From: Oscillospiraceae bacterium
GTDB taxonomy: Bacteria; Bacillota; Clostridia; Oscillospirales; SIG627
Length of the DNA: 64,000 bases
NCBI GenBank assembly: GCA_034925865.1
Contig: JAYFRN010000005.1
Span: forward strand, 5,964 to 69,963
Direction: 5' to 3'
Part shown: positions 1,996 through 7,474 of the stretch, piece by piece
How positions within the stretch are numbered: position 1 is the stretch's first letter
Layout of the letters: each line of letters begins with the position of its first letter
Program-made: the position numbers and the translations under genes
Notes under the pieces: generated by a model
Seen by the model: only the letters and a program-made list of their open reading frames with translations
Database searches by the model: none
Told to the model about the DNA's origin: nothing

Positions 1996-2024
1996 TTGAC
2001 AAATCTGTTTGGCGGTGGTATACT
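1996..2024 (+). promoter_or_regulatory. Sigma-70-type promoter of asnA-glnA
   Basis: TTGACA (1996-2001), 17-bp spacer, TATACT (2019-2024). Confidence 0.6.
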
Positions 2025-2106
2025 GCTTCCTAACAGCAAAGGTGCTGTAGGTGAGGCCTACGCACCTTATTTTGTTATTATTATTTATTATAGGAGTGAT
2101 TGTCAT

Positions 2107-3114
2107 ATGAGCAAAATTCAGATTCCAACAGATTATTCGTCAAAGCTCACAGTTTATCAAACTCAGACCGCAATTGGTCAGCTTAAGAGATACTTTGAGG
2201 ACAATTTGTCTAACGCGCTCAATTTAAAGCGCATATCCGCGCCGCTGTTTGTCGACGCAAAAACGGGGCTCAATGACAATCTTAACGGAGTTGAGCGTCC
2301 TGTAAAATTTGATATTCTTGAAACCGGCACAGACGCCGAGGTTGTTCATTCACTCGCCAAATGGAAAAGGCTTGCGCTTTGGAAATATGGTTTTAAACAT
2401 GGTGAAGGTCTATATACCGATATGAATGCCATCCGCCGTGACGAAACAATGGACAACCTTCATTCTATATATGTCGACCAATGGGACTGGGAAAAGGTTA
2501 TAACTGCAGAAGACAGAAATGAGGAATATCTGCGTGAAACCGTTTGCGATATCGTTTGCGCGATATGTGACACACTTGATGAAATGAAGGCTCAGTATCC
2601 TATTATTAATACAGAGCTTTGCCGTGAGGTAGCTTTTATTACCTCTCAGGAACTCGAAGATATGTATCCCGATTTGACATCGAAACAACGCGAGGACGAA
2701 TTTGTAAAGCTGCATAAAACCGCGTTTGTTATGCAAATAGGTGACAAGCTCAAATCAGGTGAAAAGCATGACGGGCGCGCACCGGATTACGATGACTGGA
2801 AGCTGAACGGAGATATTATTTTCTGGAATGACCTTCTCGGATGTGCCTTCGAGGTGTCCAGCATGGGAATCCGCGTAGATCCCGCGTCACTTGATACGCA
2901 GCTGACCAAGGCCGGATGTGATAATCGCCGTTCGCTTCCGTTTCACAAAATGCTTCTTGAAGGGAAACTTCCGCTTACTATGGGCGGAGGAATCGGACAG
3001 TCGCGTCTTTGCATGTTGATTCTTCAAAAGGCTCATATAGGAGAAGTACAGGTGTCTGTCTGGGACGACGCCACATTGGATACATGCAAAAAAGCGGGAA
3101 TAGCCATTCTCTGA
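2107..3114 (+). CDS. asnA: Aspartate-ammonia ligase (asparagine synthetase A)
   Basis: From [12 protein letters not shown] onward the translation is full-length AsnA-like (class II aaRS-like fold, about 335 aa). AGGAG lies 10 nt upstream of ATG 2107. The track ORF start at 1996 coincides with the promoter -35 box. Confidence 0.9.
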
Positions 3115-3141: not shown

Positions 3142-5223
3142 ATGGATATACAATCAGTTTTCGGATCGATGGTATTCAGCGACAGCGTCATGAAAGAACG
3201 TCTGCCGCGCGAAATATACGATGAATTTCAGAACTCGATCAAACAGGGAAAAAGTCTCGAGCTTCCGGTCGCTAATATAATTGCCCGCGAAATGAAGGAT
3301 TGGGCAATCGAAAAAGGAGCGACACATTATACTCATTGGTTTCAGCCAATGACAGGAATGACCGCCGAAAAACATGACAGCTTCATAACAGTCTCCGCAA
3401 ACGGCGTGATTATGGATTTTTCCGGGAAAGAATTGATTAAAGGAGAGCCGGATGCGTCCAGTTTTCCTTCGGGCGGTTTGCGCGCCACATTTGAAGCACG
3501 CGGTTATACAAGCTGGGATCCTACTTCATACGCGTTTATTAAAGACGGAACGCTCTGCATTCCTACCGCATTTTGTTCATACAGCGGAGAAGCTCTTGAT
3601 AAGAAGACGCCTCTTCTGCGCTCAATGGAAGCGATTGGCAATGAAGTAAAACGCCTGATGAAAGCCATCGGCGACGAATGCGATTCCGTTCAGACTACAA
3701 TAGGAGCGGAACAGGAATATTTTCTTGTCGACCGCGCCGCATTTAAAAAGCGCCGCGACTTAATATTTACAGGAAGGACGCTTTTCGGAGCAATGCCGCC
3801 TAAAGGGCAGGAGCTCGAGGATCATTATTTCGGCGCGATCCGTCCGCGTGTCTCCCTTTATATGAAAGCGCTTGACGAGGAGCTTTGGAAACTGGGGGTT
3901 TTTGCGAAAACCGAGCATAACGAGGTTGCTCCGTCTCAGCATGAGCTTGCTCCGATATTCACCACCGCGAACGTTGCGGTAGACCACAATCAGCTTACAA
4001 TGGAAATGATGAAAAAGGTAGCCGCAAAATTTGATCTCGCCTGCCTTCTTCATGAAAAGCCTTTTGCCGGAGTCAATGGCTCGGGAAAGCATGAAAACTG
4101 GTCTGTCGGCATAAACGATAAAGTAAATTTATTTAAACCCGGTGACAATCCGAGAAAGAATTACCGTTACCTTCTTTCAATTTGCGCGGTAATATCTGCC
4201 GTGGACGAGTATCAGGAACTATTGCGTCTTACCTGCGCAAGCGCCGGAAACGATCACCGCCTCGGAGCGAACGAAGCGCCGCCGGCAATTATCAGCATGT
4301 TTATCGGCGATGAGCTGTGCGAAATATTTGATTCGATCTGCCAGGGCAGTGAATATATAAACCGCGACCGCGCGGCAATGGAAACCGGTGTTCATGTTCT
4401 GCCTCAGTTCAAGCGTGATTCCACAGACAGAAACCGTACGTCGCCCTTTGCGTATACAGGGAATAAATTCGAATTCCGTATGCCTGGTTCTTCATTTTCC
4501 GTCGCGGATTCGACGACTGTATTGAATACTATTGTCGCTGATGTACTGATGAGATTTTCTGATGAACTTGAGAATGCGTCCGACATTCCGTTGGCCATAG
4601 AAAAGCTTATTGCCCGTGAATACACTGCTCATAAGAGAATAGTATTCAACGGCAACAACTACGCTCCGGAATGGCTTGAGGAAGCAAAGAAACGCGGATT
4701 ATTAAATCTGCCGTCAGTTTCTGACGCCATACCGTATTTAATATCTGAAAAGAGCATAAAGCTATTTAAGCGCCATAAGATATTCACTGAAAACGAGCTA
4801 CGTTCCCGCTGTGAAATATATCTTGAAAATTATTGCAAGGTCGTCAATATCGAAGCTCTCACTATGATTTCAATGACACATCAGGAAATTATCCCTGCTA
4901 TTGAAAAATATACGGCTCAAATCTGCAACGCCGGAAAAGTAAAAAAAGAGCTTTCAGGCAGTATCTCAACGAAATTTGAAGAAAACTACGCAAATAGACT
5001 TTCCGATAATATGCTCACTATTTCTGAAAGGCTTGAAATACTCGAAAAATGCGTCGCAAAAATTAAAGAGATTCAAAATACACTTGATTGCGCGCGTTAT
5101 TACAAGTCTGATGTGATTCCCGCTATGGATTCGCTGCGTGAAATCTGCGACGAGCAGGAAACGCTGGTAAGCCGTGAAGCATGGCCGTTCCCCTCATACG
5201 GCGAAATATTGTTCAGCTTCTGA
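3142..5223 (+). CDS. glnA: Glutamine synthetase, type III
   Basis: 693-aa ORF. Length and sequence (N-terminal GSIII domain, [18 protein letters not shown] catalytic region) fit type III GS. It starts 27 nt after asnA. Confidence 0.9.
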
Positions 5224-5294
5224 TTAAATCGGGCGCTGCCGCAGCAATGTGTGCAGCGTCCGGTTAGTTTTAATGTAAGATTGAATCCCATCTA

Positions 5295-5323
5295 TTGACG
5301 TTTCAGAAAATATATGCTACAAT
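5295..5323 (+). promoter_or_regulatory. Sigma-70-type promoter (extended -10)
   Basis: TTGACG (5295-5300), 17-bp spacer, TGcTACAAT (-10 hexamer at 5318-5323). Confidence 0.6.
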
Positions 5324-5353
5324 ATTTAAAATCTATGGAGAGGAAAGCACGTC

Positions 5354-5440
5354 ATGACATCCGTATACAATCGTAATAATCAACAGCAGCAGCAACTCGT
5401 GATCAAATCGATAACGGGCTTTTGTTGTTGTATTCTATAG
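5354..5440 (+). CDS. 28-codon mini-ORF MTSVYNRNNQQQQQLVIKSITGFCCCIL (leader peptide or small Cys-rich peptide)
   Basis: ATG preceded by GGAGAGGAAAG with 6-nt spacing. It lies between a strong promoter and an intrinsic terminator. Too short for the ORF track. Confidence 0.35.
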   Translation: MTSVYNRNNQQQQQLVIKSITGFCCCIL

Positions 5441-5470
5441 ATCGCACAAAAATATAGCTATTAGAATTAA

Positions 5471-5509
5471 CGGTTAAAGTCCAAAAAAGGATTTTGACCG
5501 TTTTTTTTT
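5471..5509 (+). terminator. Intrinsic terminator in the leader of the MetRS-family gene
   Basis: 12-bp stem CGGTTAAAGTCC / GGATTTTGACCG (two G-U pairs), A6 loop, then a run of nine T. Confidence 0.6.
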
Positions 5510-5548
5510 CGAAGAAGACTTAATATTATTTTAATGGGAGCAATAATC

Positions 5549-7474
5549 ATGGAAAGCAAAAAAGCATCAGAAAGACCTTCTTTTCCAAAAAGAGCACTGG
5601 TGACAGGCGGTATGCCATACGGTGAGAAAGAATTGTATTTTCATCATATCGGAGGAGTTTTTGTTCATGCCGATATATTTGCACGCTTCATGCGCGATCG
5701 TATCGGAAAAGAAAATGTTTTGTTCATATCAGGAACTGACTGTTACGGTGCCGGTGTTGAGCTCGGCTATAAAAAAGCTTTGTGTGCCGGATTTATCGGA
5801 AGCATAAACGATTTTGTTTTACAAAAACACAATAAGCAAAAAGAAGTGCTTGAAAAGTATCAAATATCTCTTGATATATATTCAGGTTCAGCATTAGACG
5901 ATGCTGCAAAAATTCACAATGATTTATCCGCAGAAATATTTAATGCTCTTTATAACAATGGCTATTTGAAACTGGAACGAACCATGCAGTTTTTTGACAC
6001 TGAAAAGGGCGTTTATCTTAATGGGCGGCAAGTCAAAGGCCGTTGCCCAATACAAGGTTGTAAATCAGAAAATGCATATGCCGACGAATGCTCTCTCGGT
6101 CATCAATATAGCCCAGATGAGCTTATAGATCCAATAAGTGTTCTTTCAGTAAAAACACCGGAGCGTGTTCCTGTTGATAACTGGTTTTTTGACTTGCCTG
6201 CAATTTCTGAACAACTAAACAACCTGTTGGAAGAATGGGAAAATAATCCGTCTTGCAGAAAAACATTAACAACAGTAGTACGAGAATTTTTACGTAAGCC
6301 TGCAATTTATATAAAAAATGAATTAATTGATGAAGTACGAAAATATGATGAAATGCCTTCTTATGTTCTGATTAAAGATGAAACAAAAGCATCATCAGCA
6401 CTGGAGTTTGATACTTTAATTGAAAGAGATAAAGCAATTCTGCTATTAACAAAAAAAGGAATACATTTTAGAACGGGTAAAACAATCGTACCATTCAGGT
6501 TATCAGGTAATGTAAGTTGGGGTGTTCCTGTCCCGAGCAAAGATGGATTAGAGGGTCTGACATTCTGGGTATGGCCAGAATCATTATGGGCACCAATATC
6601 TTTTACAAAAGCGGTATGCCGTGAAAAAGGCTGCAATACAGGTTGGTCGGAATGGTGGAAATCGGATGATTCAAAGGTATATCAATTTATTGGTGAAGAT
6701 AATATGTATTTTTATGCTATAGCTGAAATGGGAATATTTATGGCATTGAACGAAGGTTATAAAATGCCGGAGATAGTACCTAATCGCCACATTCTATACG
6801 GAAAGACAAAGGCTTCAAGCAGCGGCGATAATAAACCTCCCAAAGCGGATGAACTGCTTGATTATTATACTCCAGAACAACTAAGATTACATTTTATGAA
6901 CACCAGTTTAAGCGATAGAAGTGTAGGCTTTGAGCCAAAAGCATTTATGAAAGGTAACAGCGGTTTTGATAATGTTTTAAATGAGGGTAATTTGGCGACA
7001 AATGTTTTTAATCGGCTTTTACGTTCTTGCTTCTATACCATTCAGAAATATAATAATGGCATTCTGCCTGAATATGCGGTAAGCAGTGAGGTAAAAAGGA
7101 GAGCAGATGATGTGATATTGGAATATGAAAAATTAATGTCGATATTTGCGTTCGATAAGGTTTTTGAGCTGTTGAATTTATATCTTCGCGATGCCAACAA
7201 AGACTGGTCGACAAGAAGCAAAAATGATAATCCTGATGATATTAAGAAATTAATATCCGATAGCATCCATGTTATCAGAACAGCTGCTGCCTTGTTTCAT
7301 CCCATAACACCTGTCAGTTGTGAGATGATCCGGGAGTATTTGAATGTTGATGATAGAATCTGGGATTGGAAGTATATTTTTGAACCCTTAAACTTTTTTA
7401 TTGATCGAAATCATACATTGAAGTTCCTTGAACCTCGCATTGACTTTTTTAAAAAGCATGAATCACAATTATAA
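5549..7474 (+). CDS. Class I aminoacyl-tRNA synthetase family protein, MetRS-like, with divergent signature motifs
   Basis: Alignable by eye to MetRS: MPYGEKELYFHHIGG, a Cys knuckle GRCPIQGCKSENAYADECSLGH, FWVWPESLWAP, YQFIGEDNMYFY. GGGAG lies 8 nt before ATG 5549 (the track start at 5534 is less likely). HIGH reads HIGG and KMSKS reads KASSS. Confidence 0.75.
   Translation: MESKKASERPSFPKRALVTGGMPYGEKELYFHHIGGVFVHADIFARFMRDRIGKENVLFISGTDCYGAGVELGYKKALCAGFIGSINDFVLQKHNKQKEVLEKYQISLDIYSGSALDDAAKIHNDLSAEIFNALYNNGYLKLERTMQFFDTEKGVYLNGRQVKGRCPIQGCKSENAYADECSLGHQYSPDELIDPISVLSVKTPERVPVDNWFFDLPAISEQLNNLLEEWENNPSCRKTLTTVVREFLRKPAIYIKNELIDEVRKYDEMPSYVLIKDETKASSALEFDTLIERDKAILLLTKKGIHFRTGKTIVPFRLSGNVSWGVPVPSKDGLEGLTFWVWPESLWAPISFTKAVCREKGCNTGWSEWWKSDDSKVYQFIGEDNMYFYAIAEMGIFMALNEGYKMPEIVPNRHILYGKTKASSSGDNKPPKADELLDYYTPEQLRLHFMNTSLSDRSVGFEPKAFMKGNSGFDNVLNEGNLATNVFNRLLRSCFYTIQKYNNGILPEYAVSSEVKRRADDVILEYEKLMSIFAFDKVFELLNLYLRDANKDWSTRSKNDNPDDIKKLISDSIHVIRTAAALFHPITPVSCEMIREYLNVDDRIWDWKYIFEPLNFFIDRNHTLKFLEPRIDFFKKHESQL

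Follow-up and report, generated by a model that had tools for sequence, protein, structure and literature searches.

Leader element upstream of a synthetase-like gene

We analyzed a leader element and the gene that follows it in a 64,000-nucleotide (nt) stretch of contig JAYFRN010000005.1 from an Oscillospiraceae bacterium; this whole stretch, numbered from its first letter, is referred to as the window. The gene (5549–7474) encodes a 641-amino-acid class I synthetase of the methionyl-tRNA synthetase (MetRS) fold family, as judged from Pfam, model scores and motifs. The organization of the leader in front of it (5295–5548) suggests a transcription attenuator that responds to the supply of charged glutamine tRNA. 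The gene and all leader features given below lie on the plus strand.

The element opens with a sigma-70-type promoter (5295–5323) composed of TTGACG (5295–5300), a 17-nt spacer and the extended −10 sequence TGcTACAAT (5315–5323). It scored 10/12 plus the TG extension in a promoter scan of the leader, and a TTGACN-17-TGnTAnAAT arrangement precedes every homologous leader. We infer a start of the leader transcript at about 5330. The Shine-Dalgarno (SD) sequence GGAGAGG (5337–5343) is followed by an open reading frame of 28 codons plus stop (mini-ORF, 5354–5440), which runs from ATG 5354 to TAG 5438–5440 and encodes MTSVYNRNNQQQQQLVIKSITGFCCCIL. Within it are five consecutive glutamine (Gln) codons, CAA CAG CAG CAG CAA (5381–5395), which together with the bases next downstream, the 5′ strand of an inner hairpin, are referred to here as region 1, and three consecutive cysteine (Cys) codons (5423–5431). 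Both strands of the 64-kb window contain no other mini-ORF with at least three consecutive Gln codons. The Cys codons fall within region 2 (GGGCUUUUGUUGUUG(U)AUUCUA, 5416–5437), which can pair either with region 1 and the arm of an outer helix, P0, or with region 3 (UAGAAUUAACGGUUAAAGUCC, 5462–5482). The intrinsic terminator (5469–5509) is built of a 14-pair stem (5469–5482/5489–5502) with a 6-nt loop and nine U at 5501–5509; its 5′ arm doubles as part of region 3, and its 3′ arm (5489–5502) constitutes region 4.

On rereading of the sequence, the promoter, the SD sequence, the 28-codon frame, the helix between the Gln and Cys codons and the terminator were all found at the positions given in a preliminary description of this locus. 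The 12-bp terminator hairpin reported there (5471–5500) was confirmed and extends to 14 pairs, with nine T following. The distance of about 40 nt from the terminator to the MetRS-family gene agrees with ATG 5549, 39 nt after the T-run, as the most likely start of the gene; this start has GGGAG 8 nt upstream and is in agreement with the N-termini of homologues.

The predicted minimum free energy (MFE) fold of RNA 5330–5549 has −52.6 kcal/mol, as compared with a shuffle mean of −37.3 (z = −3.8), and 0 of 200 shuffles were as stable. This fold combines the terminator with a 10-bp helix between the Gln and "Cys" codon runs (5383–5392 with 5422–5431, three of the pairs being G-U), with an inner hairpin of the 1:2 structure, or anti-antiterminator (5396–5418, CUCGU.AUC ... 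GAU.ACGGG), for which there is covariation, and with P0, whose 5′ arm (5331–5339) reaches into the start of the SD sequence and pairs with 5434–5442. P0-like arm pairs were recognized by eye also in three related loci, L029 (CUUAUAGAA/UUCUAUAAG), L111 and L119.

Rfam covariance searches gave zero matches at gathering score in the whole window and only noise in 5200–5600 at E ≤ 10. The T-box family (RF00230) was absent from the window at gathering score and from 5200–5600 at E ≤ 10, in line with the earlier remark that no T-box is visible at this locus. Rfam families of leader peptides (Leu, His, Thr, Trp, Phe and others) gave nothing above noise at the leader, and zero Rfam matches at gathering score were obtained for 18 further loci.

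Conservation of the mini-ORF and its glutamine codons

The leader set comprised 17 distinct leaders, that of the window and those of 16 other loci, belonging to two protein clades. Clade 1 (L001, L028, L029, L111, L116 and L119) has proteins 70–79% identical to the window protein, and clade 2 (L072, L073, L077, L078, L080, L082, L091/L109, L092, L094 and L101) proteins about 50% identical to it. A BLASTN search of the leader against upstream regions detected the closest four loci only; to reach the clade-2 leaders, which likewise precede homologues of the gene, the clade-1 alignment was used as an nhmmer query. The element always has the same orientation and always lies upstream of the synthetase-like gene family.

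The mini-ORF is open in all 17 distinct leaders, each with an SD-linked start. Across the span of the frame, the 17 leaders contain no in-frame stop, vs. 48 and 33 stops in the other two frames, and each of the 19 SD-linked starts shares its frame with the Gln run, the other two frames having none. Three to five consecutive Gln codons are found in every leader. The distance between start and Gln codons amounts to 8, 9, 10, 11 or 12 codons; as it differs by whole codons, the insertions and deletions there were whole codons. The comparison with homologues that had been proposed as a check on the locus thus shows the mini-ORF, the Gln run and the terminator to be kept upstream of the gene in 17 distinct leaders.

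All clade-2 peptides have 30 codons and the form M..KFS.TMNKMNQQQQLIVK.DNGLF.LCS. In clade 1 the peptide is without protein conservation beyond a QQQ(Q)L[VI][IV] core. There, a 1-nt insertion or deletion causes the constant nucleotides UUGUUGUUG to be read as CCC (window and L029), CC-stop (L001), LLL (L028, L116 and L119) or LSLC (L111), and the C-terminal halves of close relatives show CCCIL, CC*, LLLYS, LLSLCIL and LLLHS. Because these frame shifts change the residues while UUGUUGUUG stays, the Cys codons are a by-product of RNA pairing, and the constant thing is the RNA segment itself. The Cys codon run pointed out earlier is therefore not conserved, being lost as codons within clade 1.

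The same readings bear on the suggestions that the leader senses Cys or that the Cys-rich peptide is made, or used as a substrate, by the downstream enzyme. Three consecutive Cys codons do occur in the window and in L029, but identical nucleotides give LLL, LSLC or CC-stop in the other clade-1 leaders, the C-terminal half is not conserved as protein in this clade, and the leader peptide has zero Pfam matches. In addition, a ribosome stalled on the Cys codons would cover region 2 and so favor termination. We find either suggestion scarcely credible. A precursor resembling ribosomally synthesized and post-translationally modified peptides was also considered and rejected, as there is no conserved Cys core and the C-terminal half shifts frame among close relatives.

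Competing RNA structures of the leader

The ground state, with regions 1 and 2 paired (1:2) and the terminator (3:4) formed, is the MFE fold. When its pair map was applied to 16 aligned leaders, 88.5% of the cells were paired, as compared with 33–52% when the partners were slid; 12 pairs were changed on both sides, and 0 of 500 shuffles reached the observed values. The covariation signal is carried by the terminator (96% paired, 8 of 14 pairs compensatory) and the inner hairpin (93% paired, 3 of 8 pairs compensatory, e.g., 5402-5412 from A-U to G-C), both scored in the same 16 sequences.

Region 2 can pair alternatively with region 3 (5416–5437 with 5462–5482) to give an antiterminator, a pairing that the preliminary description had not contained. 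The structure was folded with region 1 blocked and with the transcript ended before region 4 (in the window, at 5482). Under these conditions the antiterminator was the predicted fold in 16/16 leaders, with an energy of −15.5 kcal/mol in the window and −13.6 to −26 kcal/mol in the 15 other leaders, values comparable to those of the terminators (about −18 to −28 kcal/mol). In clade 1, 96% of the antiterminator cells are paired vs. 26–54% with the partner slid, and in 15 of the 16 leaders the antiterminator is more stable than that formed with a shuffled region 2 (z = −1.6 to −4.2). Comparison by eye of L109 with L094 revealed a joint change, G to A in region 2, C to U in region 3 and G to A in region 4, which is the expectation for a strand common to two helices. 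Folding of 5330–5549, recommended earlier as a way to look for exclusive terminator and antiterminator structures, yields the 1:2 and 3:4 structures; the 2:3 alternative is predicted for the shortened transcript with region 1 blocked.

That the conserved antiterminator overlaps the terminator argues against an independent small-protein or small-RNA gene which ends at its own terminator, with the synthetase gene transcribed from a separate promoter. Such a gene would fit the strong promoter and the strong terminator, with a transcript of about 180 nt expected to build up between them, and the 140–265 nt that separate terminator and synthetase-like gene in some clade-2 loci. However, the gap is 39 nt in the window and 23 nt in L111, neither with a credible promoter, and the element is always found upstream of one gene family in one orientation. 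This explanation appears highly improbable.

Glutamine T-boxes on related genes

Other members of the gene family are preceded by T-boxes. T-boxes passing the Rfam gathering score (93 bits), at 97–112 bits, were detected in L054, L057, L062, L071, L074, L087 and L100, and further family loci show the T-box sequence by motif. The specifier was readable in 12 loci, as GAA-N-CAA-G, GAA-N-CAG-G or GAA-CAG-G, where N is A, C or G. In the standard frame (bulge positions 2–4, counted from the 3′ end; PMC7778990), the specifier is always a Gln codon (CAA/CAG) and never AUG, and the neighboring frames are inconsistent. The variable base of the T-box UGGN is C in nine loci and U in six. A variable C or U suits the G discriminator which we take tRNA-Gln to have, and C would be unsuited to the A that we assume for elongator tRNA-Met; the window and 60 loci contained no tRNA-Gln gene from which to read the discriminator base. 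In one further locus (L105, 2785–2865), a Clostridiales-2 RNA (RF02937, 80 bits vs. a gathering score of 58.6) separates the Gln T-box from the synthetase-like gene.

Neighbor joining placed the clade-2 attenuator group within a set of branches that bear T-boxes. As read from their sequences, the two sensors of this gene family, although unrelated, would both read tRNA-Gln, which supports Gln as the signal. Regulation cognate to methionine is absent, all readable specifiers being CAA/CAG and the leader peptides carrying Gln runs.

The T-boxes also help to judge whether the element could be an RNA-only switch, in which a ligand or protein stabilizes 1:2 or 2:3 (a riboswitch or protein-binding leader) and the open frame is incidental. 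In favor of this, the 1:2 element forms a structured domain that is well conserved and shows covariation, the start-codon block AAAGCRCGUCAUG can pair with ACGGGCUUUU in some leaders, and structured leaders are the norm in Firmicutes. Against this, all 19 starts are in frame, the stops are distributed over the frames as 0, 48 and 33, the indels are whole codons, Rfam has no match, and there is free variation in the loop and in the N-terminal stretch. That orthologues have Gln T-boxes in place of the element suggests tRNA charging as the signal, and we consider an RNA-only switch unlikely.

Proposed mechanism of attenuation

We propose, with a probability of roughly 0.75, that 5295–5548 is a classical ribosome-mediated transcription attenuator reading the supply of Gln-tRNA(Gln). 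The stalling of the ribosome, its coupling to RNA polymerase and the response to glutamine are what we infer from the sequence and the predicted folds. With no ribosome on the leader, the 1:2 pairing would form, the 3:4 terminator would fold and transcription would stop at the U-run. A freely running ribosome, once at the stop codon (5438), would cover about 5423–5452, i.e., most of region 2, and the terminator would form as well. When Gln-tRNA is scarce, the ribosome would stall on the Gln codons (5381–5395) and cover the RNA to about 5405, hiding region 1. Region 2 (5416–5437), left free by the stall, would then capture region 3 once this is made, the terminator would be prevented, and RNA polymerase would read through into the synthetase-like gene. 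The extents of ribosome coverage were estimated from reading the sequence with a standard footprint size. The "Cys" codons would arise where sequence complementary to the Gln codons and to the terminator arm happens to be read in that frame, and would not represent a second sensor.

The preliminary description had considered a ribosome-mediated attenuator sensing Gln and/or Cys charging. The type of attenuator is supported by a translated and conserved mini-ORF, a terminator and mutually exclusive structures, all of which are present, and so is the Gln part; the Cys part is not.

Several observations weigh against the proposed attenuator. In the full transcript with region 1 blocked, the terminator is still the thermodynamic winner. 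A purely thermodynamic switch was rejected for this reason, and the switch must be kinetic, as in classical systems. Covariation of the clade-1 antiterminator is weak and mostly one-sided, and is equaled by 126–145 of 500 shuffles. In clade 2 the register of the antiterminator differs, so that a window-based pair map of the antiterminator and Gln helix fails there (1-nt register shift), and the clade-2 support comes from folding. Since A and G at the third position of a Gln codon can both pair with U, the CAR run by itself does not distinguish between coding and pairing constraints. Among the homologues of the gene are many that have no T-box and no leader of this type. At least in Bacillus, transcription and translation are reported to be only weakly coupled. 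Finally, the attenuator is known from sequence and predicted folds, and the organism from metagenomes only.

Comparison with known systems

The attenuators of E. coli pheST (pheM) and of the trp, his, leu and pheA operons are the textbook leader-peptide systems. The window leader shares with these an SD-led short frame, a run of codons for a single amino acid within region 1, mutually exclusive 1:2, 2:3 and 3:4 hairpins, a stop codon sited so that an unstalled ribosome would mask region 2, and an intrinsic terminator before the structural gene; as in pheST, the gene regulated is that of a synthetase. It differs from them in its Gln regulatory codons, in its host among uncultured Clostridia, in the lack of similarity to Rfam leader families and in the extra outer helix upstream of the SD sequence. 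Every feature by which a leader-peptide attenuator is recognized at the sequence level is present in the window leader.

T-boxes are the norm for synthetase genes in Clostridia and Firmicutes. Those specific for Gln, of which TBDB lists 226 (PMC7778990 supplement), resemble the window leader in their position before orthologues, in the response to uncharged tRNA-Gln by antitermination and in the choice between terminator and antiterminator (RF00230). The T-box binds the tRNA via Stem I and the T-box bulge, whereas the window leader would use a stalling ribosome. Genes for tRNA-dependent amidation in Clostridium acetobutylicum are reportedly under the control of an Asn-specific T-box. In that case, too, the specifier names the end-product tRNA and not the nominal substrate of the synthetase-type enzyme; the amino acid, the enzyme family and the type of leader are different.

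In our literature search, which covered subscription journals thinly, we met with no precedent for an attenuator with Gln codons or for Gln regulation of MetRS-like genes, and with nothing relevant on Gln T-boxes with MetRS-like genes or on a MetRS-like glutaminyl-tRNA synthetase (GlnRS).

The regulated synthetase-like protein

The regulated protein matches the Pfam domain tRNA-synt_1g with E = 1e-61. Its scores lie far below every cut-off of the curated MetRS models, with 233 bits vs. 587 for NF001100 and 188 bits vs. 336 for TIGR00398. Alignment with E. coli MetRS showed that D52, Y15 and W253 are kept, that the equivalents of the anticodon-contact residues N391, R395 and W461 are conserved, and that the zinc knuckle (CxxC...C) is present, all of which, together with the tRNA-synt_1g domain, the protein has in common with canonical MetRS. 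It differs from canonical MetRS in the sub-cut-off scores, in a Tyr in place of the Met-pocket residue His301 (H301Y), in about 80 inserted residues near positions 250–330, in the replacement of KMSKS by KASSS throughout the family, and in regulation by Gln and never by Met. Variants without the second Lys of KMSKS are known in other class I enzymes. An Asn at E. coli position 297 was considered as a mark of a changed pocket and withdrawn, as archaeal and eukaryotic MetRS reportedly have KDN there.

The HIGH motif is of the canonical type in most of the family (H[FL]GH, within PYGNKxLH[FL]GH) and reads YFHH (residues 30–33) in the clade of the window. The first His of this motif is lost in exactly the clade that has the clade-1 attenuator. 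Other motifs found family-wide are FIGEDN[IVM]YFY and VWPESLWAPISF. The family occurs mostly in uncultured Clostridia (Oscillospiraceae, Christensenellales), with at least 586 metagenomic matches, and its members are named "methionine--tRNA ligase" or "class I tRNA ligase family protein" in databases. By tblastn, no second MetRS-family gene was found in 0.9 Mb of locus DNA, which represents partial genomes. The regulated protein shows no Gln depletion (2.8% vs. a background of 2.75%).

The label "MetRS-family" given to the gene earlier holds for the fold. As Gln T-boxes and a Gln attenuator occur on one family, including T-boxes on orthologues, its identity as a MetRS is questionable. Two unrelated Gln leaders, the sub-cut-off MetRS scores, KASSS and H301Y are the grounds on which we tentatively raise the possibility of a MetRS-derived enzyme supplying Gln-tRNA(Gln), either a third kind of GlnRS or a tRNA-Gln charging enzyme that feeds an amidotransferase. 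This assignment is doubtful, and the conservation of N391, R395 and W461, the contact residues for a CAU anticodon, speaks against it.

Genes for other synthetases adjoin the family gene in several loci: a preceding GluRS-like gene with a methyltransferase gene (L120, 1–1972), a converging CysRS gene (L121, 3952–5391), and, in L038 and L044 (upstream of 2171 and 3001, respectively), a ValRS/IleRS-like gene whose stop is overlapped by the family gene. The frequency of synthetase neighbors suggests a housekeeping role of the family gene. These contexts are at odds with an explanation in which the ribosome stalls for a cause other than Gln, by drug- or nascent-peptide-dependent arrest, and the gene encodes a drug-insensitive synthetase. 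Extra synthetase copies are a known route to resistance, and mobile-element genes adjoin the locus in L029 (insertion sequence transposase) and L116 (TnpV and serine recombinase). Most family members, however, stand in housekeeping contexts beside GluRS, CysRS or ValRS-like genes, the clade-1 peptide is unconserved outside its QQQ(Q)L[VI][IV] core and shifts frame at the C-terminus, and the Gln T-boxes of orthologues sense tRNA, not drugs. We regard stalling of this kind as very unlikely.

Genomic surroundings and additional observations

Upstream of the leader, the window contains two amidohydrolase-like genes, asnA (1996–3114; TIGR00669 at 322 bits, above the cut-off) and a gene for a 693-amino-acid glutamine-synthetase-like protein (3142–5223). 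These upstream neighbors are not conserved in related loci, and because they vary from locus to locus, the leader belongs to the gene downstream. The 641-amino-acid gene is followed, in this order, by genes for a membrane protein and a GdpP-like DHH phosphodiesterase and by rplI, dnaB, tilS, hpt and ftsH.

The operon of asnA and the glutamine-synthetase-like gene has its own promoter in the segment 1995–2110 (TTGACA at 1996, 17 nt, TGGTATACT). A hairpin, AAGGUGCUGUAGG...CCUACGCACCUU, comes after it, then UAUUUUGUU, and the real start of asnA is likely ATG 2108. This hairpin region (1995–2110) contains no mini-ORF and has no Rfam match; the hairpin may be another attenuator on nitrogen genes. 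Just past the glutamine-synthetase-like gene, at 5231–5275, an imperfect GC-rich inverted repeat (GGCGCUGC...GCAGCGUCC) with a U-rich stretch is probably the terminator of that operon, separate from the leader.

In four clade-2 loci, an insert is present between the leader terminator and the gene (L080, about 2790–2990; L101, about 2800–2990; L092, about 2895–2960; L072, about 2885–2990). It opens with an SD sequence and AUGCCGGAACAGUCAGAGCUUCCCC ("MPEQSELP..."), contains inverted repeats, and in L092 is in frame with the synthetase gene. In L035 (about 2700–2780), a promoter is followed directly by a leader-like terminator (GCGGUCAAAGGUC...GGGUUUUGAC and U6), with no mini-ORF, about 250 nt upstream of the gene; this element may be the remnant of a lost attenuator. 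The mobile-element genes mentioned above are an IS3-type transposase gene at 1597–2624 in L029 and, at 3993–5923 in L116, genes for TnpV and a large serine recombinase, a neighborhood which hints that gene and leader can move together.

Implications

The leader described here, if read correctly as an attenuator, extends classical leader-peptide attenuation to glutamine, and to a Clostridial lineage in which T-boxes would be expected. With attenuator and T-box replacing each other on one gene family, nature would have provided an experiment in the exchange of sensors of tRNA charging. The regulatory codon acts at the same time as a label of the gene: attenuator and T-box alike spell "Gln" in front of a protein annotated as MetRS or "class I tRNA ligase family protein". 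Should this label be right, the large family would have a synthetase of reassigned specificity, and the account of how bacteria synthesize Gln-tRNA(Gln) would need revision for the lineages that carry it.

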